Shown here in pieces: positions 7,329 through 58,700 of a stretch of DNA of 64,000 bases (position 1 is its first letter; every line of letters starts with the position of its first letter). This DNA comes from Escherichia coli (lineage in GTDB: Bacteria; Pseudomonadota; Gammaproteobacteria; Enterobacterales; Enterobacteriaceae), in NCBI RefSeq assembly GCF_044324875.1, contig NZ_CP172187.1. The stretch is one strand, 5' to 3'. A program made the translations under genes and the position numbers. The notes under the pieces were generated by a model that did no database searches, was not told where the DNA came from, and saw only the letters and a program-made list of their open reading frames with translations.

Positions 7329-8342
7329 CTACCTCTCACTAGTGAGGGGCGGCAGCGCATCAAGCGGTGAGCGCACTCCGGCACCGCCAACTTTCAGCAC
7401 ATGCGTGTAAATCATCGTCGTAGAGACGTCGGAATGGCCGAGCAGATCCTGCACGGTTCGAATGTCGTAACCGCTGCGGAGCAAGGCCGTCGCGAACGAG
7501 TGGCGGAGGGTGTGCGGTGTGGCGGGCTTCGTGATGCCTGCTTGTTCTACGGCACGTTTGAAGGCGCGCTGAAAGGTCTGGTCATACATGTGATGGCGAC
7601 GCACGACACCGCTCCGTGGATCGGTCGAATGCGTGTGCTGCGCAAAAACCCAGAACCACGGCCAGGAATGCCCGGCGCGCGGATACTTCCGCTCAAGGGC
7701 GTCGGGAAGCGCAACGCCGCTGCGGCCCTCGGCCTGGTCCTTCAGCCACCATGCCCGTGCACGCGACAGCTGCTCGCGCAGGCTGGGTGCCAAGCTCTCG
7801 GGTAACATCAAGGCCCGATCCTTGGAGCCCTTGCCCTCCCGCACGATGATCGTGCCGTGATCGAAATCCAGATCCTTGACCCGCAGTTGCAAACCCTCAC
7901 TGATCCGCATGCCCGTTCCATACAGAAGCTGGGCGAACAAACGATGCTCGCCTTCCAGAAAACCGAGGATGCGAACCACTTCATCCGGGGTCAGCACCAC
8001 CGGCAAGCGCCGCGACGGCCGAGGTCTTCCGATCTCCTGAAGCCAGGGCAGATCCGTGCACAGCACCTTGCCGTAGAAGAACAGCAAGGCCGCCAATGCC
8101 TGACGATGCGTGGAGACCGAAACCTTGCGCTCGTTCGCCAGCCAGGACAGAAATGCCTCGACTTCGCTGCTGCCCAAGGTTGCCGGGTGACGCACACCGT
8201 GGAAACGGATGAAGGCACGAACCCAGTGGACATAAGCCTGTTCGGTTCGTAAGCTGTAATGCAAGTAGCGTATGCGCTCACGCAACTGGTCCAGAACCTT
8301 GACCGAACGCAGCGGTGGTAACGGCGCAGTGGCGGTTTTCAT
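7329..8342 (-). CDS. intI1: Class 1 integron integrase IntI1
   Basis: 337 aa tyrosine recombinase recognised as IntI1 ([41 protein letters not shown]...). Confidence 0.95.
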
Positions 8343-8498
8343 GGCTTGTTATGACTGTTTTTTTGTACAGTCTATGCCTCGGGCATCCAAGCAGCAAGCG
8401 CGTTACGCCGTGGGTCGATGTTTGATGTTATGGAGCAGCAACGATGTTACGCAGCAGGGCAGTCGCCCTAAAACAAAGTTAACCTCTGAGGAAGAATT

Positions 8499-8972
8499 GT
8501 GAAACTATCACTAATGGTAGCTATATCGAAGAATGGAGTTATCGGGAATGGCCCTGATATTCCATGGAGTGCCAAAGGTGAACAGCTCCTGTTTAAAGCT
8601 ATTACCTATAACCAATGGCTGTTGGTTGGACGCAAGACTTTTGAATCAATGGGAGCATTACCCAACCGAAAGTATGCGGTCGTAACACGTTCAAGTTTTA
8701 CATCTGACAATGAGAACGTAGTGATCTTTCCATCAATTAAAGATGCTTTAACCAACCTAAAGAAAATAACGGATCATGTCATTGTTTCAGGTGGTGGGGA
8801 GATATACAAAAGCCTGATCGATCAAGTAGATACACTACATATATCTACAATAGACATCGAGCCGGAAGGTGATGTTTACTTTCCTGAAATCCCCAGCAAT
8901 TTTAGGCCAGTTTTTACCCAAGACTTCGCCTCTAACATAAATTATAGTTACCAAATCTGGCAAAAGGGTTAA
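8499..8972 (+). CDS. dfrA1: Trimethoprim-resistant dihydrofolate reductase cassette, DfrA1 type
   Basis: 157 aa matching DfrA1 as remembered ([42 protein letters not shown]...); first cassette after attI1. Confidence 0.85.
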
Positions 8973-12395: not shown

Positions 12396-14068
12396 TCCTC
12401 AATCTGGTCGAACGGTTTGGCGGGTGGCAAGTTGTCTGCCTGCGGGTCGGCAATATCCGTATCCGGCGGAACGGGCTTGTCCGGCCGAGCTGATGTCTTG
12501 AGGTGCTGGCGGCGATCCGCGTCACGCCGCGCCTTGCGTGTGGCCTTCTGCGCGCTGGTCACAATCTCACGCATCTGGCCGATCATGCGGAACAGCGCCG
12601 ACTCATCCACCTGTTCGCGCCCTTGCTGCCGCAGTTTCGCCAGCGCCTGCCGTTGTTCCCAGAGGGTGACAGCCGGATGCGACAAGGTACGGTAGGGAAT
12701 TTCCAGGTAATGCTGTCCCTCCGGTTCCAGGACCCAGATACGGCTGATGTCGCGCGGATCGCGCCGGATCAGAAAGGACGGCCAGCGTTCACGCCGCGCA
12801 ATCCACGGCTTGAGCGCATCGGCGTAGTAGTGGATGTGGTCGATGACAAAGCCGGTGCGGGTCAGCGTGCGCCGGAGGATCGGCAGAAAATCGACCAGGA
12901 ACGAAGTAGCGCGTGTGACGACGGCCGGTACGCCGACACGCGCCACGGCCTCGGCCCAGCGCGCGGCCGGCGGTTGGAGCAGGCCGTTGTGCACCGAACC
13001 GTGGTAGGTGCCGACCGCCAATGTGAGCCAGCGCTCTAGCTCGCGCAGCGTCAGGGCGGCCTTGTTTTCGGAATCGTAGTCGCCGCGCTGGTCAGGGTTG
13101 GAGAAGGTCGTTCCCGGCAGTTCGTCGTGAATCATCTGCATCGCCGTGCCGATGATCCGTTCCACGATGCCGCCATAGTGCGGCTGTCCCAGCGGGCGAT
13201 AGTCCAGCCGGATGCCATGCTGCTCGCAACCCCGGCGCAGGGCCTCGCTCTTGAACTCGGCCGCGTTGTCTAGGTAGAGCAGCAAGGGCTTGCCGCTCAT
13301 CTGCCAATCCATTTCCACGTTCAGTCCTTCCAGCCAAGGGCGCTTGTCGCAGGCGACATGCACGAGGCACAGGCCAACCGAAACGGCAGACGGCGCTTCC
13401 AGCGTGACGACCATGCCGAGCACGCAGCGGGTGAACACGTCGATGGCGAGGGTCAGGTACGGGCGGCCAATAGGTTGCCGGTCGCGGTCATCGACCACGA
13501 TCAGGTCGATGACCGTATGGTCTATCTGCACCTGCTCCAGCGGCGCGGTCACGGCAGGAGGCTCGCCGCCCACACCTTGTAGGTCACGAGCGGCATCCTG
13601 GCCTTCCCGCCGGCGGATGACCTTGCGCGGGTCAAGGCTAGCGATCCGTAAGGCCACGGTATTGCGCGCCGGCACTCGCAGTTTTTGAGCCTTGCACACC
13701 TGAGTGACTTCGCGGTGAAAGGCCGCTAGGCTGCGCTTCTGCTTGGTCAGGAACCGCTTTTGCAGTAGCTCGTGGATGACGCGCTCGACCGGTTCCGGCA
13801 AGCGCCCCTTACCTTTACCTCCACCGGACTGGCCGGGCACCAGATCCGTCACGAGGCCGCTGCCTTGCCGGGCACGCCGGATCAGAACGTATACCTGGCG
13901 CCGAGACAAGCCCAGCGCCTGAGCCGCCATATCGGCCGCTTCGTGCCCGACCGTCTCCGACTGCGCCAACGGACTGATGATCTCCGCACGACGGCGCGCA
14001 CGCTCCCAAGCCTCATCAGGCAGAGTGGCCACGCCTTGTTCTGGAATCCGTGGGGTGTCCGTCGCCAT
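12389..14068 (-). CDS. tniA: Tn402-family transposase TniA
   Basis: 559 aa from MATDTPRIPEQ...; DDE transposase; adjacent to IRt. Confidence 0.85.
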   Translation of the reverse strand: MATDTPRIPEQGVATLPDEAWERARRRAEIISPLAQSETVGHEAADMAAQALGLSRRQVYVLIRRARQGSGLVTDLVPGQSGGGKGKGRLPEPVERVIHELLQKRFLTKQKRSLAAFHREVTQVCKAQKLRVPARNTVALRIASLDPRKVIRRREGQDAARDLQGVGGEPPAVTAPLEQVQIDHTVIDLIVVDDRDRQPIGRPYLTLAIDVFTRCVLGMVVTLEAPSAVSVGLCLVHVACDKRPWLEGLNVEMDWQMSGKPLLLYLDNAAEFKSEALRRGCEQHGIRLDYRPLGQPHYGGIVERIIGTAMQMIHDELPGTTFSNPDQRGDYDSENKAALTLRELERWLTLAVGTYHGSVHNGLLQPPAARWAEAVARVGVPAVVTRATSFLVDFLPILRRTLTRTGFVIDHIHYYADALKPWIARRERWPSFLIRRDPRDISRIWVLEPEGQHYLEIPYRTLSHPAVTLWEQRQALAKLRQQGREQVDESALFRMIGQMREIVTSAQKATRKARRDADRRQHLKTSARPDKPVPPDTDIADPQADNLPPAKPFDQIEEW

Positions 14069-35782: not shown

Positions 35783-36405
35783 AGAATAACCTCTTTCACT
35801 AACGCTTCGATTTCTTGCTGGGCTTTATCATTTTGCGTTTCAAAAATTGTCATTGATTCGGCCCAAGCATCTCGATGTGCTTTACGATCACATACCCGGG
35901 AGTTTGCCAGATGCATTTCAGGGTAATCCTTAAGTACTTCAGCTGCCTCATTGGCTTCATTAACAAACATATTTGTGGGCGTCATGTTTAAAACGAGATA
36001 TCCCCGAACATCCTCATTAAAATCTTTTGCTGCTGTAAAAACGGAGCATGTATGAGGCACAACATCCAGGTCCATCTGAGATGGGCGCAAAGGAGAAATG
36101 AATACATCTGCGGCCATCAATCCACTACGCATTTCTGCGCTATCACGGCCAGCACAGTCTGCAATAACAAAATCATAGGATTTTTCGTGTTCCTTTAACA
36201 TGGCTTTGATGTTACCTGTCGCGCCTGTAACCGGAATATGAGGGAGATCTTCAGGGCGATTGTTGTACCAGGTTAATACTGATTTCTGGTCATCTGCGTC
36301 GACAATAATCACTCTATTGCCTAGTGACATCAGATACGCAGCTATAGATACCGCCAGTGTACTTTTACCTACCCCACCCTTTTGACTACCTAATACTATT
36401 ATCAT
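35779..36405 (-). CDS. parA: ParA-family partition ATPase (type Ib)
   Basis: 208 aa with deviant Walker A GSQKGGVGKST. Confidence 0.85.
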   Translation of the reverse strand: MIIVLGSQKGGVGKSTLAVSIAAYLMSLGNRVIIVDADDQKSVLTWYNNRPEDLPHIPVTGATGNIKAMLKEHEKSYDFVIADCAGRDSAEMRSGLMAADVFISPLRPSQMDLDVVPHTCSVFTAAKDFNEDVRGYLVLNMTPTNMFVNEANEAAEVLKDYPEMHLANSRVCDRKAHRDAWAESMTIFETQNDKAQQEIEALVKEVIL

Positions 36406-36529: not shown

Positions 36530-36585
36530 AATATAACAAGATAACAAGATAACAAGATAACAAGATAACAAGATAACAATATTAT
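36530..36585. repeat. Partition centromere-like iteron array upstream of parA (8-bp ATAACAAG units)
   Basis: Six tandem GATAACAA units; palindromic operator-like sequence at 36420-36450. Confidence 0.55.
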
Positions 36586-42903: not shown

Positions 42904-43329
42904 ATGCAATATGCGAAACCTGTCACTCTGAATGTTGAAGAGTGCGACCGTCTGTTTTTTCTGCCTTACCTGTTTGGCCAGGATTTTCTGTATGCCGAGG
43001 CATCTGTGTACGCGCTGGCGAAAAAAATGATGCCGGAATATGACGGCGGATTCTGGCACTTCATCCGCCTGCCGGACGGTGGCGGTTACATGATGCCGGA
43101 TGGCGACCGTTTTCATCTGGTCAACGGTGAAAACTGGTTTGACCGTACGGTCAGCGCCGATGCCGCAGGCATCATTGTGACTTCCCTTGTGATTAACCGT
43201 CAGTTGTGGCTGTACCACGACAGCGGTGATGCAGGACTGACTCACCTGTACAGGATGCGCGATGCGCAGTTGTGGAGCCACATCGAATTTCACCCCGAAT
43301 GCAATGCGATTTACGCGGCACTGGACTGA
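42904..43329 (+). CDS. KlcA/ArdB-family antirestriction-like protein
   Basis: 141 aa; pattern FLPYLFG...[19 protein letters not shown]...[10 protein letters not shown]...NAIYAALD parallels RK2 KlcA. Confidence 0.65.
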
Positions 43330-43375
43330 TTAACGGACGGGGCGGCAATGCCGCCCCTGTAAAGGAGACGAGAAC

Positions 43376-43798
43376 ATGTACTGTACTGTTAAAGAAATTA
43401 TCCGCGAAGTGCTGGATACAGACGTGCCGGACAGTGAATGCGTTTTTGCCGTGGTGCTGACCCGTGGGGATGTGCGCCACATAGCTCAGGACTGGAGTCT
43501 GGCAGACGATGAGCTGGAAACCGTCATGCAGCGGCTGGACGATGCCTTTGAGCATGGTGCGGATGTCAGCGTTGTTCACGACGTTGTTCGTGAACTGATG
43601 GAAGAAAAGCGCGCCAGCCGTCATGTGACAGTCCCGGCGATGATGCTGGAAAAAGTGATGGCGCTGGCAGGCAGTGAAATGAAGCGCCTGTATGCCGTCG
43701 GAAGTGAGAACGGGGGCGACGGTGACGCATTCGTCAGGGAGGAACGCGAAGCAATGGACGTTGTGTTACAGGCGCTGGACGGGGAGACGATGTCATGA
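43376..43798 (+). CDS. Hypothetical leading-region protein (paralog of the 41465 ORF)
   Basis: 140 aa; paralogous segment with 41465-41899. Confidence 0.5.
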   Translation: MYCTVKEIIREVLDTDVPDSECVFAVVLTRGDVRHIAQDWSLADDELETVMQRLDDAFEHGADVSVVHDVVRELMEEKRASRHVTVPAMMLEKVMALAGSEMKRLYAVGSENGGDGDAFVREEREAMDVVLQALDGETMS

Positions 43799-43986
43799 AT
43801 ATCAGCACAGAAACCCGCGAAATTCTGCGTAATTACAGGGCCGTGATTAATGCGCGGCGTCGTGAAATGGGGCAGAAACCGCTCACCACCGCGCAGATTG
43901 TTGATGAAATCTGCGATTTTGTGGCGAATCAGCAGGCGGTTTTCCTGGGCGGTCACTACATCTTACAGGGCAGCAGAAACAGGTGA
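43795..43986 (+). CDS. Hypothetical small protein, translationally coupled
   Basis: 63 aa, ATGA overlap with upstream gene. Confidence 0.3.
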   Translation: MNISTETREILRNYRAVINARRREMGQKPLTTAQIVDEICDFVANQQAVFLGGHYILQGSRNR

Positions 43987-44183
43987 TACAGGGGCAGGCG
44001 GTGGAGGCCGCCTGTCAGCCCGCGCGAAAACCCCTGGCAGGCTGACGCCTGCCGGAAGGGAAGCGGGCCACGCTGGCGCGTCGCCCGTTACCCTTCCCGT
44101 CTGTGATGTGTCTGACTCAGGAGTGTTTCTTTCTTATGTTGCGGAACTGTTCCTGATGTTGTTGTTGTTCCTTTATCTGCTGC

Positions 44184-44788
44184 TCTGATTCTGACTACTG
44201 CAGTGTTGTTCTGTCTGCCGGGCGCACCTTCGGCTCCCGGCTGCCTGGCGGCATCCGGTCGTCAGGCCCGACTCCGACAGGCAGCTGCTGGCGCACCTGC
44301 CAGTCTCCGCCGAACCCGCTGGCGCGGCTTCGGGCTGCCGCTACGGTCCGATGCGTGAAAACCCCGGGCTTGCAGCGACCGTTCTGGTCGCGCCGCCTCT
44401 GTCGCGCCGTGGCCTGCGCTCCAGGCATCCCGGCAAAAAGACGCCGGGATGTAAGGCGCAACGCCGTTTCGCAAACCGCGCTTCACGTCGTTGCTGCGGG
44501 TCCCTGCTCATTGCCTGCCGGGTGCCACACACCCGTATGAGTCCCTGTCGCCGGGGGCATAGACAGCCACAACCTGCCGCACTGACTGTCCAGGGTAAAT
44601 GAACAGCCCACAAAATTTTTTACCCAAAACCCGGTAAAAAATTTTGCGTTCTGCCCAGGACAGGTGCGTCAGGCCGTGGCAGTGATGCCCCTTGCGGCGA
44701 AGGTTCTCAAACGGGTGAAGTTCATACCACAGGGAATACAGCAGCAGGTTCCCGCGAAACGTCAAAACCGCGGCTCCCGAAACTCAAC
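44184..44788 (+). repeat. Leading-region GC-rich repeat, family B copy 1 (about 605 bp), candidate ssDNA promoter (Frpo-like)
   Basis: Near-identical copies at 47544-48147 and 55606-56210, each immediately upstream of a gene. Confidence 0.7.
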
Positions 44789-45027
44789 GGGTGATGTTCT
44801 TTAAAAATCAGGATTTATTTCAGGCTCCGGCAATACGCATTTATGTGTTCTGTCAGTCATCCGGCTGGCAGGTAATGAGAACGCAGGAACAGAAGGAGGA
44901 AAACACCGGAGAACGTCAGACGCAGATATGAAAAAAGCAGGCCGGGGAGGACCTGCTTAATCCACACCGCAAAAACTGTTCGAGCAGTTTCTGCGGTTCC
45001 ATTCAACAGTCATAAGGAGTTTCATTT

Positions 45028-45258
45028 ATGACGGTAAGTATTGTTTCACCTTCCGCAGCGGCTGTAAAGCCCCGCCGTCATCCCCGTTTCAGACGCGAAG
45101 ACATCCCCGCGCCGGAAATTGACCCCGTGCTGAAAGCCTTCGGGCGACACATAGCCCGGAGTTTTCACCGGGGGCGTGGTGTACACATCCCCGCCATGAA
45201 AAACACGGCCTTCGGGCAGGTGCTCCGCACACTCGAACTGAAACGCGCTTTTAACTGA
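45028..45258 (+). CDS. Hypothetical small protein
   Basis: 76 aa with strong AAGGAG RBS. Confidence 0.4.
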   Translation: MTVSIVSPSAAAVKPRRHPRFRREDIPAPEIDPVLKAFGRHIARSFHRGRGVHIPAMKNTAFGQVLRTLELKRAFN

Positions 45259-45309
45259 TGAGGTGAGCCGCCCCGCGAGGGGCGGCAACAGATGGAAGGA
45301 GAACATTTT

Positions 45310-46671
45310 ATGACATTAGCAGCAATCACCATGACCGCCCCGGAAGCCGCCAACCCTGTGCAGATGTACCGCGCGACCTACTCACCGGATGACAACAAAC
45401 TGCGCCTGTATGCCGCGTCACGTCTTGACCCGGAGACGTATAAAAAAGTGCATGATGCCGGTTTTCGCTGGGCACCCAAACAGGCGCTGTTTGTCGCGCC
45501 AGCCTGGACACCGGGCCGGGAAGACGTGCTCCTCTCACTTGCCGGAGAGATTGAGGATGAAGACAGCACGCTCGCTGAACGTCAGGAAGCACGGGCGGAG
45601 CGGTTTACCGGATACAGCGGAAAGCGGGCCAGTGAATCCGCACAGGCACTTGATGAAGTGGAAAGACTGGCCGCGATGATCCCGCCCGGTCAGCCCATTC
45701 TTGTGGGGCATCACAGCGAACGCCGCGCCCGTCGTGATGCGCAGCGTATTGAAAACGGCATGAAACGTGCCGTGATGCTCTTTGAGCGTGCGGAATACTG
45801 GGAGGAGCGGGCGCGGTCGGCACTGCTTCACGCGAAGTATAAAGAACGCCCGGACGTTCGCTGGCGTCGTATCAAAAAAATCGAAGCGGATTTGCGCAAG
45901 GCTGAAAAGACCATCGCGCAGTCGCAGAAATATCTGACGATGTGGCGGGCTGAATCGCTGGATCTGAATATGGCAAAACTCATCAGCAGTCATGACCATA
46001 TCAGCGCCTGTTTCCCGCTGGACAGGTATCCGCGCCCGGCAGAAAAAAGCCAGTATGAAGGAAGTCGATCGTTATGGTCGGCCCTGGATGATGACATCAT
46101 CACCACGGAGCAGGCCCGCGAAATTGCGATCCGCTGTCATGAACGGCAGATTCAGCATCAACAACGCTGGGTTAACCACTATCATAACCGCCTGATCTAT
46201 GAGCGTGCCATGCTGGACGAAAGCGGCGGCGTGGTTACCCGGACACAGGATTTTGAGCCGGGCGGACAGGTTTTCAGCCGGGGCGAGTGGCTGACCATCA
46301 TCCGCGTGAACAAAAGCAACGGGGCGGTGAGTTCAGTCACAACGCCGAATTACAGTTTTCTCGGGTACAGCGGCACGATGAAAGTGACACCCGATCGCAT
46401 CACGGACTACAAAGCACCATCGGCAGAAGAGGCTGCCGTCGCCAGTCAGGCCGCGAAGCGTCCGCCGGTAGTCAACTATCCGGGGGAAGGTTTCCGGGAA
46501 ATGACAAAGGCGCAGTGGGCCGCCCTGCCCCGGGACTGTAAGGCCGTGCGCAGTGTGGCAGAGACAGAAGACCACGGGGCATACCGCTACCGCCGCACAA
46601 TGGACAATAATTTCCGCCTGGTGAATGTGTATATCACTGACATGAAAATCACGGAAATCCCACAGAAATAA
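45310..46671 (+). CDS. Hypothetical leading-region protein (453 aa, possibly DUF3560-like)
   Basis: Long ORF with AGGAG RBS before MTLAAITMTAPEA; family assignment from memory only. Confidence 0.5.
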   Translation: MTLAAITMTAPEAANPVQMYRATYSPDDNKLRLYAASRLDPETYKKVHDAGFRWAPKQALFVAPAWTPGREDVLLSLAGEIEDEDSTLAERQEARAERFTGYSGKRASESAQALDEVERLAAMIPPGQPILVGHHSERRARRDAQRIENGMKRAVMLFERAEYWEERARSALLHAKYKERPDVRWRRIKKIEADLRKAEKTIAQSQKYLTMWRAESLDLNMAKLISSHDHISACFPLDRYPRPAEKSQYEGSRSLWSALDDDIITTEQAREIAIRCHERQIQHQQRWVNHYHNRLIYERAMLDESGGVVTRTQDFEPGGQVFSRGEWLTIIRVNKSNGAVSSVTTPNYSFLGYSGTMKVTPDRITDYKAPSAEEAAVASQAAKRPPVVNYPGEGFREMTKAQWAALPRDCKAVRSVAETEDHGAYRYRRTMDNNFRLVNVYITDMKITEIPQK

Positions 46672-46717
46672 GGTATATCCCCCCGGGAAATCCCCGGGGG
46701 ATGACGGAGATAATGAC

Positions 46718-47281
46718 ATGCACAGTCAGTTAAGAGAACGTATCCGGCTGATGCGCGCAAGGCTGGATAACGCCGCGCCGGTTGCTGAAATCCGGGCTGA
46801 ATCTCAGCTTTTTGTGACTCCTGCCCCGGTCTGTGATCGCCTGGTGACGCTGGCGGAAATCAGCAACCGTGATCACATTCTGGAACCCTCTGCCGGCACC
46901 GGGGCCATACTGCTGGCGATTCGGGATACCGCGCCGGAGGCCATGTGTGATGCGGTGGAGATTAACAGCGGGCTGGTCCGGTATCTGCGGGAAAATTTTA
47001 ACGGTGTCAGGGTACAGTGTGGCGACTTCATGGAATGGCAGCCGGTGCAGTATTACAGCCGGATCATTATGAATCCGCCGTTCAGTCACGGGCAGGATAT
47101 CCGGCATATCCTGCGGGCTTTTTCCCTGTTGCGTCCGGGGGGCGTTCTGGTTGCCGTCTGTCTCAACGGGCCGCGCCAGCAGGAGAAGCTGTTACCGTTT
47201 TCTGACGTCCGCGAGGAGCTGCCGCGCGGCACGTTTGCTTATACCGATGTCCCGACGATGATTATTCGTTTGCGTGCCTGA
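46718..47281 (+). CDS. Small SAM-dependent methyltransferase (NPPF motif), putative orphan DNA methylase
   Basis: 187 aa; ILEPSAGTGAILLAI AdoMet motif and IIMNPPFS catalytic motif. Confidence 0.65.
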   Translation: MHSQLRERIRLMRARLDNAAPVAEIRAESQLFVTPAPVCDRLVTLAEISNRDHILEPSAGTGAILLAIRDTAPEAMCDAVEINSGLVRYLRENFNGVRVQCGDFMEWQPVQYYSRIIMNPPFSHGQDIRHILRAFSLLRPGGVLVAVCLNGPRQQEKLLPFSDVREELPRGTFAYTDVPTMIIRLRA

Positions 47282-47460
47282 TGACACAGGGCTGGCGGGA
47301 GGATAAATGCCCGTCTGTCCGCGCCGGGAAAAGACCGCGCGCCGGTGGCGCTGAAAGGGGCCGCGCTCACGCGCCGCCCCTTTCATTACGCGGACGTTCT
47401 GATGGGGGCTTCTGTCTTTTCAGACCTGTCATTTGTCTGTTACTGATGATGTTGTTGTTC

Positions 47461-47526
47461 CTGCTACTGCTACTGCTACTGCTACTGCTACTGCTACTGC
47501 TACTGCTACTGCTACTGCTACTGCTC
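47461..47526. repeat. Hexanucleotide tandem repeat (CTGCTA)x11
   Basis: Perfect 66-bp array; absent from the corresponding position in the other two family B copies. Confidence 0.85.
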
Positions 47527-47543
47527 TTCTTTTTCCTGCTGCT

Positions 47544-48147
47544 CTGATTCTGACTACTGCAGTGTTGTTCTGTCTGCCGGGCGCACCTTCGGCTCCCGGC
47601 TGCCTGGCGGCATCCGGTCGTCAGGCCCGACTCCGACAGGCAGCTGCTGGCGCACCTGCCAGTCTCCGCCGAACCCGCTGGCGCGGTTTCGGGCTGCCGC
47701 TACGGTCCGATGCGTGAAAACCCGGCTTGCAGCGACCGTTCCGGTCGCGCCGCCCCTGTCGCGCCGTGACCTGCGCTCCAGGCATCCCGGCAAAAAGACG
47801 CCGGGATGTAAGGCGCAACGCCGTTTCGCAAACCGCGCTTCACGTCGTTGCGGCGGGTCCCTGCCCGTTGTTGTGTCCGGTGCCATTCACCTGTTTAAGC
47901 CCCTGTCGCCGGGGGCTGATACAGCCACAACCTGCCGCACTGACTGTCCAGGGTAAATGAACAGCCCACAAAATTTTTTACCCAAAACCCGGTAAAAAAT
48001 TTTGCGTTCTGCCCAGGACAGGTGCGTCAGGCCGTGGCAGTGATGCCCCATGCGGCGAAGGTTCTCAAACAGGTGATGGTGAATACCGGAGGGAACAAAG
48101 AGCAGGTCCCCGCAAAACGTCAAAACCGCGGCTCCCGAAACTCAACA
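47544..48147 (+). repeat. Leading-region GC-rich repeat, family B copy 2, immediately upstream of ssb
   Basis: Near-identical to 44184-44788 and 55606-56210. Confidence 0.7.
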
Positions 48148-48187
48148 GATGATGGGGGCTGAAAACATCAACAGAAGGAGACACATC

Positions 48188-51100
48188 ATGGCAGTTCGTG
48201 GCATTAACAAGGTCATTCTTGTCGGTGTGCGCCGTTGAAGCGCGGTGTTTTATGGAGTGTTGCCTGAAAAGCAACATGGCTTAGTGGTATAGCCATTGCA
48301 TACTGTGGTTAGCCTTGCTTGGTAACAGGCTCGGAGATCCTGAAAAGGAGAGGTGAACATAGCATCCACAGAAAAGGGTGGTGAATATGGAAATCGTTAT
48401 AAGTATCACCATTCAATGCAAGATGTATATGGATAAACTGGGTTTGTTGAAGTCGAGATCTATGTGGGAAACAGGAAACCAATAACGCAGAACGATTGAA
48501 GCGTTATTCCCGTACTAGCACAAGAAATCCGTCCGACGTTGATTGTGACCACTCTAACGGGCCAGCTATTGATGAAATAGTTAAACGATCGAAAGACATC
48601 CTAAGTACATCGCATCTCCACACCGTGAAACTACGGGACTACCTAAACTGGATTTATACCCAGCATGGTAGCGGAGTCTCCATAGTACTCAAGGTCGGCC
48701 TGTAATGGGTTCCGGCAGTCCGCATTATACGGAAGCAGCAAAGGTATAAATCAACCGGAAGGAAGATGAAAGCCTCACAGTGCTGCGGGGAAGGGAGACA
48801 GTTGTTAGATACATCAATCTCTAAGAGGAGGGTTAGCCAATGCTGCCTGATGAACTTGAGAAAAGATTAGATGGAATTGAGGATGCTTCAAAAAAAGGGT
48901 ATCCAGTACGTAATCTATACAAAATTGCGTGTGAGCCCGGACTGTGGCTGCAAGCCTACGTGAATATACGGGCCAATGCAGGTGCACTGACTCAAGGTGT
49001 ATCAACAGATACCATTGATGGCTTTTCTATCGAAAGAGCAGAGAAGCTGGCAAAAACATTGCGGAGTAGAGAATACGTAGCGAAACCTGTACGCAGAGTT
49101 CAGATCCCAAAAAAGGACGGAAAAACCAGACCGCTGGGGATTCCAGGTGGAGACGATAAACTGGCGCAAGAAGTAGCAAGAATTATTCTGGAAAGGGTTT
49201 ATGAACCAGTATTCTCTGAACACTCTCATGGATTCAGACCAAAACGTTCGTGTGAAACTGCGCTCAGATCTATTCGTCCAGTCTGGAACGGAGTTAAATG
49301 GATCGTGGATGTTGATATCAAAGGTTTCTTTGACAATATCCCCCACAAACTATTGCTGAATACACTGGCAGAGAAAATTAAGGATAAGAATTTCCTGAAA
49401 TTAATCGAACAGTGGCTGAAGGCAGGATATGTGGACAATTGGAAATACCATCGCTCATATTCTGGCACGCCACAAGGTGGGATAATTTCTCCCTTACTGG
49501 CAAATATATACCTCGACAAACTGGACCGTTTTGTAGAACAGAATTTAATTCCTGCATATACAAGCGGTACAAAACGAAGAGCGAATCCAGATATGAACAG
49601 GCTGGCCCATAAGATTCATAAACTACGAAAGAAAGTAGACGGTATGGCAACTGATTCTGAATCAGAAAAAGAAGCCATAAAGAAAGAAATTGAACGACTG
49701 CTTGAAGAAAAACGTTCTATACCATCTCAGGTCATGAACGATCCAAACTTCAGGCGTATGTACTATGTTCGATATGCTGATGACTTCGTAATCGGTGTCA
49801 TCGGCTCGAAGAAAGATGCTGAACATATATCAAGACAGGTCAGAAACTTTATTACTACTTCACTGGGATTGGAAGTTAATGAAGCAAAGACCAGGATCCG
49901 CCATATCTCAGAAGGAGTTAATTTTTTAGGCTATGAAATCAGACAGGCAGATGCAAAGAAATTGCTGAAGCAGAAAATGCAAGGGCGGCACGCTCTCCGG
50001 AGATCCACCACAGGAATTGTGCAGCTCTTCGTTCCTGACAATATAGCCGCTAAATTTTGTCACCAAAAGAAATATGGCTGTTATGAGAATGTGAAGGCTG
50101 TACATCGTTCAAGTCTACAAAATCTCAGTGAAGCTGAAATTGTTCTGACTTTCAACGCGGAAATGCGCGGATTGGCGAACTACTACAGTCTGGCGCTGGA
50201 CATGAAATATAAATTATCAAAATTATATTTCATATGGCAAATAAGCCTTTTTAAGACCCTGGCGAATAAACGACGTAGTTCAGTGAATAAAGTCGCCAAA
50301 TCGCTACGGCAAAATAATGGAGATCTGGCTATTACCGTTCAGGCCAAAAATGGATCCCGAAAGATTGAGGTTTTCAAACTCAAACATGTCAATCGCAACC
50401 GAACAACGATTGTCGATACGGAACCGAGAACCGCACATATCACAACCCGCACAACAGAGATCATGCGTCGATTAGGGGCAAGGATCTGCGAGTATTGTGC
50501 GAAGACTGGGCGCTGCGAAGTACATCATGTCAGAAAGCTAAAAGACCTGAAGAAAGGTCGTAAGGCCGGATATAAACCCAGCTTGTGGCAACTAATGATG
50601 ATCGCACGCCGCCGGAAAACGATGATTTTGTGCGCAAGTTGCCACGACAAGTTACATAGCGGAAAACTACCCGATTTGAGACAGGAAAAGGGAAGAATAC
50701 TCCTGCAACCACCTGTCTCAAGCGGGGATTCTGCTAAATGAGTTTATCCCCAATAAGCTAGCAATGGAGAGCCGTATGCACTGAAAGGTGCACGTACGGT
50801 TCGGAGGGGGGGTAACGGTGATCTAACTCAAGATAAGCAGGACATATTCGCCATTTATCTTGAAAGACCACACGTACCCTACCCTACCGTCTGGGAAAAG
50901 ATCCGGAAGTCCGTTACATCCCAAACGGGGGCGCAGTGGCAAACCTGCAGGTGGCCACGTCAGAAAGCTGGCGCGACAAACAGACGGGGGAGATACGGGA
51001 GCAGACAGAATGGCATCGCGTGGTGCTGTTCGGCAAGCTCGCGGAAGTGGCTGGTGAGTATCTGCGCAAGGGCGCGCAGGTCTACATCGAAGGTCAGCTT

Positions 51101-51376
51101 CGCACCCGTAGCTGGGAGGATAACGGTATCACCCGTTACGTCACCGAAATTCTTGTTAAGACCACGGGCACCATGCAGATGCTGGGACGTGCCGCAGGTA
51201 CTCAGACTCAGCCGGAAGAGGCGCAACAGTTCAGCGGTCAGCCTCAGCCGGAATCACAGCCGGAACCGAAAAAAGGAGGCGCGAAAACGAAAGGCCGTGG
51301 ACGTAAGGCCGCGCAGCCGGAGCCTCAGCAGCCGTCTGAACCCGCGTATGACTTCGATGACGACATTCCGTTCTAA
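48188..51376 (+). CDS. ssb: Plasmid single-stranded DNA-binding protein Ssb, interrupted by a group II intron (exon 1 48188-48226, exon 2 50888-51376)
   Basis: Exon 1 [13 protein letters not shown]; exon 2 [35 protein letters not shown]...DDDIPF; joined frame gives a 175 aa SSB. Confidence 0.8.
48227..50887 (+). mobile_element. Group II intron (about 2.66 kb) inserted in ssb
   Basis: Starts GTGCG; domain V-like GAGCCGTATGCACTGAAAGGTGCACGTACGGTTC at ~50768; encodes RT/maturase/HNH protein in domain IV. Confidence 0.8.
48840..50741 (+). CDS. Group II intron-encoded protein: reverse transcriptase, maturase and HNH endonuclease domains
   Basis: 633 aa; RT motifs incl. [13 protein letters not shown]-terminal HNH/Zn motif [17 protein letters not shown]...CASCHDKLH. 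Confidence 0.85.
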   Translation: MLPDELEKRLDGIEDASKKGYPVRNLYKIACEPGLWLQAYVNIRANAGALTQGVSTDTIDGFSIERAEKLAKTLRSREYVAKPVRRVQIPKKDGKTRPLGIPGGDDKLAQEVARIILERVYEPVFSEHSHGFRPKRSCETALRSIRPVWNGVKWIVDVDIKGFFDNIPHKLLLNTLAEKIKDKNFLKLIEQWLKAGYVDNWKYHRSYSGTPQGGIISPLLANIYLDKLDRFVEQNLIPAYTSGTKRRANPDMNRLAHKIHKLRKKVDGMATDSESEKEAIKKEIERLLEEKRSIPSQVMNDPNFRRMYYVRYADDFVIGVIGSKKDAEHISRQVRNFITTSLGLEVNEAKTRIRHISEGVNFLGYEIRQADAKKLLKQKMQGRHALRRSTTGIVQLFVPDNIAAKFCHQKKYGCYENVKAVHRSSLQNLSEAEIVLTFNAEMRGLANYYSLALDMKYKLSKLYFIWQISLFKTLANKRRSSVNKVAKSLRQNNGDLAITVQAKNGSRKIEVFKLKHVNRNRTTIVDTEPRTAHITTRTTEIMRRLGARICEYCAKTGRCEVHHVRKLKDLKKGRKAGYKPSLWQLMMIARRRKTMILCASCHDKLHSGKLPDLRQEKGRILLQPPVSSGDSAK

Positions 51377-51389
51377 CGAAAGACAGTGA

Positions 51390-51665
<276 letters not shown>

Positions 51666-51728
51666 GAGAGGTGCCGGACGGGAACGCGTCCGGCAGACAT
51701 ACAACCATCCCGGTCAAAGGAGAAATAT

Positions 51729-53686
51729 ATGTCAGTTACAGAGTCTAAGACAAAAACGGAGCGTAAATCCAGCCGTAAACCTGCAAAAACGCAGGAAACT
51801 GCACTGTCTGCCCTGCTGGCGCAGACGGAGGAAGTGAGCGTGCCGCTGGATTCACTGATTAAATCACCGCTGAATGTGCGCACGGTGCCGTATTCTGCGG
51901 AGTCCGTCAGTGAACTGGCTGATTCCATTAAGGGAGTCGGCCTGCTGCAGAATCTGGTTGTTCATGCCCTGCCAGGTGACCGTTACGGTGTCGCCGCAGG
52001 TGGTCGCCGACTGGCAGCACTCAACATGCTGGCAGAGCGTGACATCATTCAGGCTGACTGGCCTGTCCGCGTGAAAATTATTCCGCAGGAGCTGGCGACG
52101 GCTGCATCGATGACCGAGAACGGTCATCGTCGGGATATGCACCCTGCCGAACAGATTGCCGGATTCCGCGCAATGGCGCAGGAAGGCAAAACACCTGCGC
52201 AAATCGGTGATTTGCTGGGCTATTCACCCCGCCATGTCCAGCGAATGCTGAAACTGGCTGACCTTGCGCCTGTCATCCTCGATGCGCTGGCAGAAGACCG
52301 CATCACCACCGAACACTGTCAGGCGCTGGCGCTGGAGAACGACACCGCGCGTCAGGTGCAGGTGTTTGAAGCCGCTGCCAGTCAGGATGGGGTGGAAAAC
52401 CGGATGTGCGGGTTATCCGCAACCTGATTACGGAAAGTGAAGTGGCGGTGAAGGACAACACTAAATTTCGCTTTGTGGGGGCTGATGCTTTCTCGCCTGA
52501 CGAACTGCGCACCGATTTGTTCAGCGATGACGGGGACGGTTATGTCGACCGCGTGGCGCTCGATGCCGCCCTGCTGGAAAAACTCCAGGTTGTTGCAGAG
52601 TCCCTTCGGGAAGCAGAAGGCTGGGAATGGTGCGCCGGGCGCATGGAGCCAGTCGGTGAGTGCCGTGAGGATGCCGGAACATACCGCTGTCTGCCGGAGC
52701 CGGAAGCGGTGCTGACGGAGGCGGAAGAAGAACGCCTGAACGAACTGATGACGCGTTACGACGCGCTGGAAAACCAGTGTGAGGAATCCGACCTGCTGGA
52801 AGCAGAAATGAAGCTGATGCGCTGCATGGCGAAGGTCAGAGCGTGGACGCCGGAGATACGTGCCGGAAGCGGTGTGGTGGTGTCCTGGCGTTATGGCAAC
52901 GTATGTGTCCAGCGTGGTGTGCAGTTGCGCAGTGAAGATGACGCGACTGACGACGCTGACCGCACGGAACAGGTGCAGGAGAAAGCGTCAGTGGAGGAAA
53001 TCAGTCTGCCACTGCTGACGAAAATGTCTTCCGAACGCACGCTGGCAGTCCAGGCGGCACTGATGCAGCAACCGGACAAATCCCTGACACTGCTGGCATG
53101 GACGCTCTGCCTGAATGTGTTTGGCAGCGGAGCGTACAGTAAACCAGCACAAATCAGCCTGGAATGTAAACATTATTCGCTGACCAGCGATGCGCCGTCA
53201 GGGAAGGAAGGTGCCGCATTCATGGCGCTGATGGCAGAAAAAGCCCGTCTTGCGGCCCTGTTACCGGAGGGATGGTCACGGGACATGACGACATTCCTTT
53301 CACTCAGTCAGGAGGTGCTGTTATCCCTGCTCAGTTTCTGCACCGCGTGCAGCATCCACGGCGTTCAGACCCGCGAGTGTGGTCACACGTCACGCAGCCC
53401 GCTGGACACGCTGGAGAGCGCCATCGGTTTTCACATGCGCGACTGGTGGCAGCCGACAAAAGCAAACTTCTTCGGACACCTGAAAAAGCCGCAGATTATC
53501 GCAGCCCTGAATGAGGCAGGACTGTCCGGTGCCGCACGGGACGCGGAGAAGATGAAGAAAGGCGATGCGGCTGAACATGCAGAGTTCCATATGAAAGACA
53601 ACCGCTGGGTGCCTGGCTGGATGTGTGCACCACGTCCACAGACGGATACCACTGAACGCACTGATAACCTGGCTGATGCCGCCTGA
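51729..53686 (+). pseudogene. ParB-like nuclease domain protein gene, split by a +1 frameshift near 52400
   Basis: ORFs 51729-52427 and 52406-53686 overlap in different frames; first part has ParB/Srx-like N-domain; combined length about 650 aa. Confidence 0.6.
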
Positions 53687-53737
53687 TGAACAACCACACC
53701 GCCCCGCCGGAGACGGGGCGGCAGCAAGGGAGATACC

Positions 53738-54175
53738 GTGATGAAAACTGAACTGACCCTGAATGTCCTGCAGACCATGAACGCACAGGAATATGAAGAT
53801 ATCCGTGCTGCGGGAAGCGATATGCGCCGTAATCTCACTCACGAGGTGATGCGTAAAGTGGACGCACCGGCTAACTGGATGATGAATGGCGAGTATGGCA
53901 GTGAGTTCGGGGGCTTTTTCCCCGTCCAGGTTCGTTTCACGCCAGCCCACGAACGTTTTCACCTGGCGTTATGTTCACCGGGCGATGTCTCTCAGGTCTG
54001 GGTGCTGGTTCTGGTGAATGCCGGTGGTGAGCCGTTTGCGGTGGTTCAGGTGCAGCGGCGGTTTGCACCGGAAGCTGTCAGCCATTCACTGGCACTGGCG
54101 GCGTCACTGGATGCGCAGGGGTACAGCGTTAACGACATCATTCATATCCTGATGGCGGAAGGAGGTCAGGCATGA
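53738..54175 (+). CDS. psiB: Plasmid SOS inhibition protein PsiB
   Basis: [38 protein letters not shown]... Confidence 0.9.
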
Positions 54176-54891
54176 GCGCACGTTCACAGGCACTGGTTCC
54201 TCTCAGCACAGAGCAACAGGCCGCATGGCGGGCGGTGGCGGAGACCGAAAAACGCCGCCATCAGGGTAACACGCTGGCTGAATATCCGTATGCGGGTGCG
54301 TTTTTCCGCTGTCTGAACGGAAGCCGCAGGATATCGCTGTCTGACCTGCGATTTTTCATGCCGTCCCTGACCGCAGAAGAACTGCACGGCAACCGTCTTC
54401 AGTGGCTGTATGCCATCGATGTGCTGATTGAAACACAGGGCGAGGTCTGCCTCCTTCCCCTTCCCGGTGATGCAGCAGAGCGCTTGTTCCCGTCGGTGCG
54501 GTTTCGTGTCAGGGAACGCAGTCGCCATAAATCCGCGCTGGTCATGCAGAAGTACAGCCGCCAGCAGGCGAGGGAGGCAGAGCAGAAAGCCCGTGCGTAC
54601 CAGGCGCTGGTCGCTCAGGCTGAAATCGAACTGGCATTCCATTCGCCGGAAACAGTCGGAAGCTGGCATGCACGCTGGAGTGACCGGGTGGCAGAGCATG
54701 ACCTGGAAACCCTGTTCTGGCAGTGGGGCGAGCGTTTTCCGTCACTGGCCGGAATGGAACGCTGGCAGTGGCAGGATATGCCGTTCTGGCAGGTTATTGC
54801 GGAAGCCAGTCTTGCAGCAAGAGAGGCCGGTCACGCTGTCCGTGAGATGGAGCGGTGGATGGTGCCGAACAAACTCCGGGAGGCAGCGTGA
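54172..54891 (+). CDS. psiA: Plasmid SOS inhibition protein PsiA
   Basis: 239 aa, overlaps psiB stop. Confidence 0.85.
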
Positions 54892-55112
54892 TGCGGCAAC
54901 AATCACACGGATTTCCCGTGAACGGTCTGAATGAGCGGATTATTTTCAGGGAAAGTGAGTGTGGTCAGCGTGCAGGTATATGGGCTATGATGTGCCCGGC
55001 GCTTGAGGCTTTCTGCCTCATGACGTGAAGGTGGTTTGTTGCCGTGTTGTGTGGCAGAAAGAAGATAGCCCCGTAGTAAGTTAATTTTCATTAACCACCA
55101 CGAGGCATCCCT

Positions 55113-55325
55113 ATGTCTAGTCCACATCAGGATAGCCTCTTACCGCGCTTTGCGCAAGGAGAAGAAGGCCATGAAACTACCACGAAGTTCCCTTGTCTGG
55201 TGTGTGTTGATCGTGTGTCTCACACTGTTGATATTCACTTATCTGACACGAAAATCGCTGTGCGAGATTCGTTACAGAGACGGACACAGGGAGGTGGCGG
55301 CTTTCATGGCTTACGAATCCGGTAA
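55113..55325 (+). CDS. mok: Mok/FlmC-like overlapping reading frame of the hok/sok-type locus
   Basis: 70 aa ORF overlapping hok in another frame. Confidence 0.5.
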
Positions 55326-55329
55326 GTAG
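55171..55329 (+). CDS. hok: Hok/FlmA type I toxin (52 aa); antisense Sok-like RNA expected just upstream on the opposite strand
   Basis: [52 protein letters not shown]; below the 60-aa ORF track cutoff. Confidence 0.8.
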
Positions 55330-55605
55330 CAACCTGGAGGCGGGCGCAGGCCCGCCTTTTCAGGACTGATGCTGGTCTGACTACTGAAGCGCCTTTATAA
55401 AGGGGCTGCTGGTTCGCCGGTAGCCCCTTTCTCCTTGCTGATGTTGTACGGGCATGAACAACCTGACTTCAGGAAGGTCGTTTCCCTTCAGGAACGGGGA
55501 TGAACGCGCGCCTGCGGCGCCCGTTCTTTTCCCCCGCCTTCTCTGGTTATGGCCTGTCAGAAATCACATCACCTTCCCTGTGATTATTCTCTTTTTCTTC
55601 CTGCT

Positions 55606-56210
55606 CTGATTCTGACTACTGCAGTGTTGTCCTGTCTGCCGGCGCACCTTCGGCTCCCGGCTGCCTGGCGGCATCCGGTCGTCAGGCCCGACTCCGACAG
55701 GCAGCTGCTGGCGCACCTGCCAGTCTCCGCCGAACCCGCTGGCGCGGTTTCGGGCTGTCGCTACGGTCCGATGCGTGAAAACCCCGGGCTTGCAGCGACC
55801 GTTCCGGTCGCGCCGCCTCTGTCGCGCCGTGGCCTGCGCTCCTGGCATCCCGGCAAAAAGACGCCGGGATGTAAGGCGCAACGCCGTTTCGCAAACCGCG
55901 CTTCACGTCGTTGCTGCGGGTCCCTGCCCGTTGTTGTGTCCGGTGCCATTCACCTGTTTAAGCCCCTGTCGCCGGGGGCTGATACAGCCACAACCTGCCG
56001 CACTGACTGTCCAGGGTAAATGAACAGCCCACAAAATTTTTTACCCAAAACCCGGTAAAAAATTTTGCGTTCTGCCCAGGACAGGTGCGTCAGGCCGTGG
56101 CAGTGATGCCCCATGCGGCGAAGGTTCTCAAACAGGTGATGGTGAATACCGGAGGGAACAAAGAGCAGGTCCCCGCAAAACGTCAAAACCGCGGCTCCCG
56201 AAACTCAACA
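55606..56210 (+). repeat. Leading-region GC-rich repeat, family B copy 3
   Basis: Near-identical to copies 1 and 2. Confidence 0.7.
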
Positions 56211-56249
56211 GATGATGGGGGCTGAAAACCAGAGAGAGGAGAAAGCTGG

Positions 56250-56537
56250 ATGAGTACCCGAAATATCCACGTTAACACCGCGTCGTACACGATTCTTGTT
56301 GCCGGGAGGGAAAAAAACACCGGGGAAGAGTGGGACGTCCTGGAATTCAGCAGCCTGACTGAGCTGAAAAAATATCGCAAAAGCCACCCGGAAAAGATGG
56401 CCTTCAGCTATAGCTACGCGCTCAGCCGGGGTGTGGATACGCAGTTCCGCCATATCAACATTGCGGAAGCCGATCACTTCAAACAGTTCCTGCGTCAGAT
56501 TAAGCGTGCCGGCCTCGATATCCGGGCGATCTGCTGA
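56250..56537 (+). CDS. Leading-region protein (F orf95-like, 95 aa)
   Basis: 95 aa ORF directly downstream of repeat copy 3. Confidence 0.5.
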   Translation: MSTRNIHVNTASYTILVAGREKNTGEEWDVLEFSSLTELKKYRKSHPEKMAFSYSYALSRGVDTQFRHINIAEADHFKQFLRQIKRAGLDIRAIC

Positions 56538-56655
56538 CCGGATGTGATGAATATCCCTCCTGATTGTTGCAATCTTGTTAATGGAGATCGGGAGAGATGA
56601 TATTAAGCGGAAAAATTTTTTATTAAATTTATTCTTTCATAAAGGAGTAGCTGTT

Positions 56656-57477
56656 ATGCGATTAGCTTCCCGTTTTGGTCGGTATAATTCCATCCGTCGT
56701 GAACGTCCTTTAACGGATGATGAATTAATGCAGTTCGTGCCTTCGGTATTTTCCGGTGATAAACATGAGTCCCGGAGTGAACGTTATACGTATATTCCAA
56801 CAATCAATATCATCAATAAGTTACGTGATGAAGGTTTCCAGCCATTCTTTGCCTGTCAGAGTCGGGTTCGTGATTTGGGACGCCGCGAATACAGTAAACA
56901 TATGTTACGTCTTCGCAGGGAAGGGCATATTAACGGGCAGGAAGTTCCTGAAATTATCCTGCTTAATTCACATGATGGTTCATCCAGTTATCAGATGATC
57001 CCCGGAATTTTTCGTTTTGTCTGCACAAATGGCCTGGTGTGCGGAAATAATTTTGGCGAAATCCGTGTTCCACATAAAGGTGATATTGTCGGGCAGGTTA
57101 TCGAGGGAGCGTATGAAGTGCTCGGTGTCTTTGATAAGGTCACTGATAATATGGAGGCGATGAAAGAAATTCATCTTAACAGTGACGAGCAACATTTATT
57201 TGGCAGAGCTGCACTGATGGTCAGGTATGAAGATGAAAATAAAACGCCAGTGACACCTGAACAGATAATTACTCCCCGTCGTCGGGAAGATAAACAGAAC
57301 GATCTCTGGACAACCTGGCAGCGGGTTCAGGAGAATATGATAAAAGGTGGATTATCGGGGCGAAGTGCCTCCGGGAAAAATACCAGGACAAGAGCCATTA
57401 CAGGTATTGATGGTGATATAAGAATCAACAAGGCGTTATGGGTGATTGCCGAACAGTTCAGAAAGTGGAAGTCATGA
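56656..57477 (+). CDS. Leading-region protein (F orf273-like, DUF932-type)
   Basis: 273 aa from MRLASRFGRYNSIRRERPLTDDELMQF... Confidence 0.55.
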   Translation: MRLASRFGRYNSIRRERPLTDDELMQFVPSVFSGDKHESRSERYTYIPTINIINKLRDEGFQPFFACQSRVRDLGRREYSKHMLRLRREGHINGQEVPEIILLNSHDGSSSYQMIPGIFRFVCTNGLVCGNNFGEIRVPHKGDIVGQVIEGAYEVLGVFDKVTDNMEAMKEIHLNSDEQHLFGRAALMVRYEDENKTPVTPEQIITPRRREDKQNDLWTTWQRVQENMIKGGLSGRSASGKNTRTRAITGIDGDIRINKALWVIAEQFRKWKS

Positions 57478-58339: not shown

Positions 58340-58700
58340 TCAACAGGTTGGTGGTTCTCACCACCAAAAGCACCACACACTACGCAAAAACAAGTTTTTG
58401 CTGATTTGCCACTTGAATCATTAACTTATGTTTTAAATAATGTATTTTAATTTATTTTACATTATAAAAAGGATTCATTGGTGAATCGCATATGATTCAC
58501 CAATGAATTTAACACAACTCATAGATGAATCAGTAATAATAAAACAACGAGTTAAAGCGAATTGACTCTAGATTCAATTCGTGATGTGATTTGCTGCATG
58601 AATCGTAATTTTCGTAACTTGCGTCACGATTCGATTCATCGATGAATTGTCATTTTTTTATATGTGAAATAAATTTGATGCGATAAGAAAATAAAGAGGT
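58340..58700. other. oriT: Origin of transfer oriT (nick region near 58360-58370 on the minus strand, plus TraM/TraY/IHF binding region)
   Basis: Reverse complement contains TTTTTGCGTAGTGTGTGGTGCTTTTGGTGGTGAGAACCACCAAC, the F/R100-type nick region. Confidence 0.65.

Follow-up and report, generated by a model that had tools for sequence, protein, structure and literature searches.

A length-variable hexanucleotide array between a methyltransferase module and the Frpo-like element upstream of ssb in an F-like plasmid

The window analysed here is a stretch of 64,000 nucleotides of Escherichia coli DNA, and the array described below sits in the leading region of an F-like plasmid with an R100-type oriT. 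The gene order around it is a gene for a DUF3560 protein (45292-46671), a methyltransferase gene (46718-47281), the array, a repeated element of about 650 bp and ssb. The methyltransferase gene lies on the + strand and encodes a class I SAM-dependent enzyme of 187 aa, as assigned from its Pfam matches (MTS/Methyltransf_25) and from the RefSeq annotation of relatives. The array starts 180 bp past the stop codon of this gene and was found to be linked to the methyltransferase module in all the relatives examined. More than 5,000 plasmids in PLSDB match the region; most of these records are conjugative plasmids of E. coli, Klebsiella and Salmonella, and the relatives that were fetched type as MOBF/MPF_F with IncF replicons. 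The best match at the locus is pLH50-c-D, which is 99.3% identical to the window and one unit shorter.

Between the methyltransferase stop codon and the array, an inverted repeat at 47352-47385 forms a GC-rich hairpin with 15-nt arms that are 93% complementary. It adjoins a terminator-like hairpin on the - strand (47351-47339), followed by TCTTTT, which was found in a terminator scan. Directly past the stop codon, a strong Shine-Dalgarno, spacer and start arrangement (GGAGG ATAA ATG at 47307) opens an ORF of 15 codons (window 47298-47354), which overlaps the GC-rich hairpin and is kept in a divergent Salmonella plasmid. Judged by sequence, this ORF and the hairpins at 47339-47385 could possibly represent a leader peptide or a terminator for an antisense transcript.

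The repeated element ("family B") is present in three copies located at 44163-44811, 47522-48169 and 55583-56232. Copy 2 (+ strand) was delimited from the repeat families D1, D2 and D5 and from blastn against F, and its segment from about 47718 to 48169 is 94% identical to Frpo2 of F, located upstream of ssb, and 90% identical to Frpo1. Over the three copies, the 3' 450 bp are 93-94% identical to F Frpo2 and 85-90% identical to F Frpo1, which is found upstream of ygeA. Both Frpo1 and Frpo2 of F have been characterised as single-stranded DNA promoters (PMC9849209). The main Frpo-like stem-loop of copy 2 is formed on the - strand at 47823-48141, as located by DNA folds and the inverted repeats I2, I6 and I8; it spans 319 nt with 122 centroid pairs and has its apex at 47962-48011. 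The predicted fold of the - strand of 47400-48200 as single-stranded DNA has a z score of -10.9 against shuffles.

The ssb gene itself is interrupted. Its first exon (48188-48226, + strand) was identified by blastn of an intact ssb, and after codon 13 a group II intron of 2,661 bp (48227-50887; Rfam Intron_gpII at 50767-50887 and ltrA annotation in relatives) intervenes before the gene resumes at 50888-51376. The intron carries an RT/maturase ORF (48840-50741), the two exons are 100% identical to an intact plasmid ssb, and the ssb-intron junction was observed in at least 313 PLSDB plasmids. At Rfam gathering thresholds nothing was found in 47250-48200, and the wider interval 43000-57000 gave only AS-pc01, sok and the group II intron. 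The AS-pc01 match (44932-45033, - strand), an antisense RNA first described on pHK01 (Rfam), overlaps the start of a small ORF at 45028-45258, and the sok antitoxin RNA match (54997-55173, + strand) is located upstream of Frpo copy 3. Elsewhere in the window, two perfect 8-bp arrays, AAGATAAC x6.4 followed by inverted TGTTATCT x2 (35405-35472) and ATAACAAG x5.9 (36533-36579), flank a two-gene cassette on the - strand with ORFs of 208 aa (35779-36405) and 100 aa (35480-35782). By its layout and ORF sizes this could be a putative partition cassette with centromere repeats on both sides.

The direction of transfer was read from the oriT. A pattern search located the nic-region sequence GTAGTGTGTGGTGCTTT at 58367-58383 (- strand), where one flanking ORF has the size of a transglycosylase gene and the other that of traM. 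The sequence has two differences from that of F and we take it to be the R100 nic sequence described by Harley & Schildbach 2003, which indicates a putative R100/R1-type relaxase specificity for the plasmid. Since GTAGTGTGTGGTGCTTT is on the - strand, the - strand is the transferred strand and the template of ssb, and the array, in the form (TAGCAG)n, therefore follows Frpo copy 2 directly into the recipient.

The array occupies 47461-47525 on the + strand as (CTGCTA)x10 followed by CTGCT, as determined by TRF, direct reading of the sequence and shuffles. TRF reports a period of 6, 10.8 copies, 100% matches and a score of 130, which is the top TRF score in the 64-kb window. The ten complete units end at 47520, and as base 47526 is a C, the eleventh unit reads CTGCTC. 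The original prediction of a perfect (CTGCTA)x11 array of 66 bp was thus right about a perfect tandem array and one base too generous about its length, although 11 Leu-Leu codon pairs do run across the 10.8 perfect units. A probe of three units has eight exact matches in the window, all of them within the array, against 0.00 expected from 100 dinucleotide-preserving shuffles; with short units repeated head to tail so far above chance, the array belongs to the simple sequence repeats (VNTRs). The sequence of the array on the transferred strand is (TAGCAG)n.

The array is a real feature. An assembly or sequencing artefact is effectively excluded, as the same array and flanks are present in more than 100 independent assemblies and in complete plasmids from many laboratories, and its 65 bp are shorter than a typical read. 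Many short-read metagenome contigs do stop within 100-300 nt of the array, and repeats here do break assemblies, but the dispersed 650-bp repeat that follows the array explains these breaks better. We noticed that many of these contigs end 100-300 nt past the search anchor described below, either within the array and the first part of the Frpo repeat or just beyond them, which makes the locus a systematic breakpoint when F-like plasmids are assembled from metagenomes.

The array is embedded in a low-complexity tract on the + strand (47417-47575), delimited by composition, Y-T-N run statistics and edge alignment. The tract is rich in T (43%) and poor in A (13%), or 48% and 10% respectively when the array is collapsed to one unit, and it is phased in triplets, with Y-T-N on the + strand (Leu/Phe codons) corresponding to A-R-N on the - strand. 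The 5' flank of the array, ATG(TTG)2TTC (47449-47460, + strand), is a second, smaller length-variable triplet repeat. Its variants in relatives range from ATGTTC up to ATG(TTG)4TTC, or read TTGTTGTTC, so that the neighbouring (TTG)n is also variable in length.

When the copies of the element were aligned at their upstream edges, the array was found to be missing at the equivalent site of copies 1 and 3, as had been predicted. However, copy 1 has a homologous low-complexity tract, CTGTTCCTGATG(TTG)4TTCCTTTATCTGCTGCTCTGA. Its edge reads ...CTGATG(TTG)4TTCCTTTATCTGCTGCTCTGATTCTGAC, where that of copy 2 reads ...CTGATGATG(TTG)2TTC(CTGCTA)10CTGCTCTTCTTTTTCCTGCTGCTCTGATTCTGAC, and copy 3 retains only the final ~35 nt of such a tract. 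The array is therefore an expansion within a shared tract and not a foreign insertion. Tracts that are T-rich (43-52%) and A-poor (6-13%) on the + strand precede all three copies in the window and both Frpo elements of F; those before the other Frpo-like copies are located at 44120-44215 and 55570-55640 in the window and at 7960-8085 and ~13430-13530 in F. At the same Frpo edge, other plasmids were observed to carry other length-variable, triplet-based repeats, for example (GTT)3-5 and (TTC)n with n up to 8, and F carries (CTCTTCTTC)x3.

All the variable motifs in these tracts have a period of 3, 6 or 9 and share one common phase. With the array collapsed, the Y-T-N run in copy 2 extends over 13 triplets against 3.8 in shuffles, and that of F Frpo2 over 19 triplets against 5.0. 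The phasing in copy 3 is also above shuffles (P 0.025), but that in copy 1 (P 0.11) and in F Frpo1 (P 0.07) falls short of significance. Furthermore, the F-type tract occurs in length classes that, in 13 of 14 cases, are congruent modulo 3. We do not take the phasing as evidence of selection because most of this regularity follows automatically from triplet-based microsatellites.

The number of units was compared across related plasmids and was found to be highly polymorphic; array length is not invariant. Searching with an exact 23-nt anchor taken from the 5' flank, CTGTCATTTGTCTGTTACTGATG, brought up at least 120 metagenome contigs. Among the matches listed there are 128 complete arrays, comprising 121 from metagenome contigs, six from complete plasmids and that of the window. 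One to seven complete units are all common in these arrays (13, 19, 15, 16, 17, 18 and 17 arrays respectively), and eight to thirteen units were observed in 3, 5, 1, 1, 2 and 1 arrays. The distribution is broad and smooth without preferred classes, and with a median of 5 the ten units of the window fall in its upper tail. Three further complete E. coli plasmids have 16 (p9662-1), 13 and 2 units, and eight more complete plasmids have 4, 4, 4, 4, 4, 3, 10 and 8. The five with n = 4 bear the intron, come from different sources and carry two methyltransferase alleles, and the instability is therefore not extreme.

All length differences between arrays are whole units, and they are also found among closely related sequences, which is the behaviour of a VNTR. 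Groups were formed from loci with the same 400 bp of upstream and 100 bp of downstream flank, and n differs in 14 of the 16 groups, by 1 to 9 units. Therefore, the repeat number changes faster than 500 bp of flank gains one substitution. With complete units ranging from 1 to 16 and such differences on identical flanks, the array is slippage-prone in the population sense, in agreement with the original prediction. Complete loss of the array (n = 0) was not observed among the loci that carry the anchor, although the anchor search itself needed flanking sequence. At least 80% of 47290-47640 is present in 1,547 of 5,426 RefSeq complete E. coli genomes, and among the 19 full-length rows of a spread sample of these genomes the locus spans 294 to 387 bp. 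The anchor had no match in a scan of viral contigs. In the set of species-representative genomes it had one match, in a MAG labelled Oscillibacter, which is probably a mis-binned plasmid contig.

An identical 5' flank and array were observed joined to two variants of the downstream element, CTCTGATTCTGACTACTGCAG... and CTCTGATTACTGTCTGTTTTG..., and the array is absent from F, which also lacks the DUF3560-methyltransferase module. Thus the array belongs to the 3' spacer of the methyltransferase module and travels with it, rather than with one copy of "family B" as had been supposed. F (7650-8644) is without the whole segment between Frpo copies 1 and 2 (window 44163-47723), that is, the small ORF, the DUF3560 gene, the methyltransferase gene and the array. 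By sequence, this difference would be consistent with gain or loss of the module by recombination between Frpo repeats, a route that has been proposed for IncI plasmids (PMC3817090).

Two reading frames are open across the array. The predicted ORF with a poly-Leu tail over the array is present in the ORF list at 47281-47547 and starts at an ATG that overlaps the methyltransferase stop codon (TGATG), and a second ORF (47433-47717) reads the array as (Ala-Thr)n. A coding role for the array, whether as a segment of a small, length-variable and hydrophobic membrane peptide (poly-Leu/Phe) or as an (Ala-Thr)n protein, is very improbable. The open frames, the placement of the start of the long ORF on the methyltransferase stop and the frame kept through all repeat changes would favour such a peptide, but the frame is preserved automatically because the unit is 6 nt. 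The start differs among loci, as the stop-overlapping ATG is kept in 63 of the 130 loci listed and the segment before the anchor is 1 nt shorter in 18 of the 130, and a TGA-to-TCA change removes the stop in some haplotypes. No purine-rich ribosome-binding sequence was found before the internal ATGs at 47446 and 47449, neither ORF over the array has a Pfam match at E up to 0.01, and F has another repeat at the same place that gives an unrelated peptide. PGAP annotates "hypothetical proteins" over the array in many plasmids, but the frames, starts and accessions differ from record to record and these proteins look spurious. A conserved start, stop and frame with a ribosome-binding site, as expected for a protein-coding gene, was thus not observed for either ORF, and the poly-Leu ORF is spurious, as originally suggested, given its unconserved start, the 1-nt upstream deletion, and the lack of a Pfam family and of an internal Shine-Dalgarno sequence. 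We rejected a coding peptide over the array on the unconserved start among loci and the lack of a Pfam family.

The array also stands apart from the promoter element. It ends at 47525 and blastn found no Frpo homology there, the homology to F Frpo2 and Frpo1 beginning near 47718. The distance from the end of the array to the base of the stem-loop is 298 nt, with the first predicted smaller stems about 45 nt away. In the predicted folds of the transferred strand the array has no pairing in the centroid structure and is 57-64% unpaired in the ensemble. As it is unpaired, 298 nt from the stem base and upstream of the Frpo homology, the array is not part of the promoter. We also folded the transferred strand with n = 0, 1, 4, 10 and 16, and in the predicted ensemble the apex remains 0.99 paired and the stem base 0.83 paired; the predicted MFE changes by no more than 3 kcal/mol over n = 0-16. 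The predicted folds, being unchanged for n = 0-16, rule out the array as a part of the Frpo hairpin or an influence on it. A hairpin formed by (CTGCTA)n itself was also discarded, as its self-pairing is poor by inspection and amounts in the folds to no more than trivial 2-bp pairs.

A scan of both strands of 46600-48300 found no sigma-70-like promoter, and a role in conventional promoter spacing was rejected on that account; the ssb promoter element is a self-contained stem-loop of the transferred strand (47823-48141). In addition, we noticed that 23 nt of the 5' flank of the array (47431-47453) are 78% complementary to the Shine-Dalgarno and start region of ssb (48164-48186). In the read-through RNA, the predicted unpaired probability from the ssb Shine-Dalgarno sequence to the AUG is 0.35, 0.35, 0.26, 0.36 and 0.36 for n = 0, 1, 4, 10 and 16, and an anti-Shine-Dalgarno role of the flank was rejected because the predicted accessibility has no trend in n. 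The suggestion that changed spacing would have consequences for the ssb promoter was therefore not borne out, given the unchanged predicted hairpin, the lack of a sigma-70-like site and the trendless accessibility. The models gave no computable sign of function for the array or its length.

We consider it likely, with a probability of roughly 0.7, that the array is a non-coding, near-neutral hexanucleotide microsatellite (VNTR) that arose by slippage. Slipped-strand mispairing would have expanded it inside a pre-existing T-rich, A-poor, triplet-phased spacer, which lies between the DUF3560-methyltransferase module and the single-strand promoter, of Frpo type, that serves the ssb operon, and the copy number would then drift by whole units. 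We infer near-neutrality, which is the most likely state of the array under our models, because no effect on the promoter hairpin, on the ssb translation signals or on any conserved ORF could be detected. The array is more polymorphic than could have been known when it was first noticed, and it is probably inert. Neutrality is, however, an argument from absence of evidence that is built on structure predictions. At least one unit was present in every complete array, although the anchor search required the flanks, and pure neutrality would not predict the periods of 3, 6 or 9 together with a tract as phased as that of copy 2 (a run of 13 against 3.8).

It is possible, if rather unlikely, that replication stalling at the adjacent Frpo hairpin raises slippage and so explains the length-variable tracts found there. 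Replication has been shown to stall at ssp2, a single-strand promoter of F, with the arrested 3' end mapping to the foot of the stem, and UvrD resolves this roadblock (bioRxiv 10.64898/2026.01.09.698686). Complementary-strand synthesis in the recipient would run in the + direction of the window, through the array and on to the structured Frpo element. A stall beside a repeat could make slippage more frequent at that point, and the edges of the elements would so collect variable microsatellites. However, the array ends 298 nt before the main stem, or ~45 nt before the smaller predicted ones, the published stall was mapped at another promoter (ssp2) in F, five plasmids of different sources share n = 4, and ordinary vegetative slippage would suffice for the variation.

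Functional readings of the array are less probable still. It could be a tunable spacer or contingency locus, a reading we consider doubtful, in which array length sets the distance, or the amount of unstructured single-stranded DNA, between the methyltransferase module and the single-stranded DNA promoter; slippage would then give sub-populations of the plasmid that differ in zygotic ssb/psiB expression or in conversion delay. The high polymorphism of n on identical flanks, the position of the array, which complementary-strand synthesis has to cross to reach a structure of a known roadblock kind, and its largely unpaired state in the predicted transferred strand all agree with this. The length of the array, 6-96 nt, also spans the size of the SSB binding site. 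However, the array is neither in or between promoter hexamers nor in a conserved ORF, the predicted hairpin is insensitive to n, and n has no preferred classes. F, which is without the array, still has a functional Frpo2, and deletion of Frpo2 or ssb in F left transfer efficiency unchanged (PMC9849209), so that any selectable effect of array length would be small.

An equally doubtful reading is that the whole tract, which on the transferred strand is T-poor, purine-rich and phased as (A-R-N)n, has a function of its own and that the array is the largest instance of it. Such a tract might be an unstructured insulator that keeps flanking GC-rich sequence from competing with the Frpo fold, or could offer a landing site to a factor that binds single strands (SSB, UvrD or Hfq). 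The distal face of Hfq binds A-R-N repeats in RNA, and the tract is considered here as single-stranded DNA. The A-poor tracts (6-13% A on the + strand) before all three copies and both F Frpo elements are in keeping with this idea, as are the period and phase kept by every variable motif and the 13 of 14 F-type length classes that are congruent modulo 3. The phase argument is, however, largely circular because period-3 motifs change by multiples of 3 by construction; only two deletions outside microsatellites (12 and 36 nt) are informative, and the phasing is not significant in copy 1 and F Frpo1. At its furthest, this reading makes the array the most expanded case of a functional tract before every Frpo/ssp hairpin, structure-free because it is T-poor, that tunes the duration of zygotic induction; or else it makes the array a footprint of stalling. 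We regard this as more doubtful again. A run-up or landing zone for SSB, UvrD, Hfq or a stalled replisome would set how long the leading region stays single-stranded, and through slippage plasmid lineages would come to differ heritably in how long zygotic induction lasts. Alternatively, the variability of the repeats would be the natural footprint of replisome stalling at single-strand promoters during conjugation.

As a near-neutral microsatellite, the array is an ordinary kind of feature (VNTR/SSR) that is apparently undescribed, since a search of the literature available found neither CTGCTACTGCTA in a plasmid context nor tandem repeats at this site of the IncF leading region. It offers a length marker of high diversity and PCR size on F-like plasmids in about a quarter of complete E. 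coli genomes (1,547/5,426), and its length could sub-type resistance and virulence plasmids that are otherwise nearly identical. The array further accounts for a family of spurious "hypothetical proteins", poly-Leu or (Ala-Thr)n, in which each repeat length brings a new accession. Furthermore, as the array lies beside an element of the stalling kind, it may be a natural read-out with which to test whether conjugative DNA conversion is mutagenic for repeats beside a single-strand promoter. Were early gene expression to depend on array length, the array would represent a plasmid contingency locus of a new kind, but we found no pointer to this.

The array can be compared with several known systems. 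Like iteron and centromere arrays, of which the 8-bp arrays at 35405-35455 and 36533-36579 beside the partition-like cassette are candidate examples in the window, it consists of perfect short tandem units, but protein-binding arrays are expected to keep their copy number and to adjoin genes for their binding proteins. Here n varies from 1 to 16, the neighbours are a methyltransferase gene and ssb with no candidate binding protein adjacent, and F shares the downstream neighbourhood genes without the array. With its copy number unconstrained, the array therefore does not behave as an iteron or centromere array. It shares with the contingency loci of Neisseria, Haemophilus and Campylobacter a hypervariable repeat number near expression signals. 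Repeats of those loci lie in a conserved ORF or in or between promoter elements, whereas this array is in neither a conserved ORF nor a promoter, its 6-nt unit cannot shift a frame, and the nearest promoter is a hairpin 298 nt away with a predicted fold that is independent of n.

Frpo, ssi and ssp are single-stranded DNA promoters of F and IncI plasmids (Masai & Arai 1997; PMC9849209; bioRxiv 10.64898/2026.01.09.698686). The array adjoins such a 650-bp element, which matches F Frpo2 at 94% identity over its 3' 450 bp; the array shares the transferred strand with this element and is upstream of it in the sense of both transcription and complementary-strand synthesis. It differs in being outside the Frpo homology and the stem-loop, and the edge of F Frpo2 has a pyrimidine repeat, (CTCTTCTTC)x3, instead. 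[quoted passage not shown] It resembles these loci in its perfect short units, in whole-unit changes on otherwise identical sequences and in its intergenic position.
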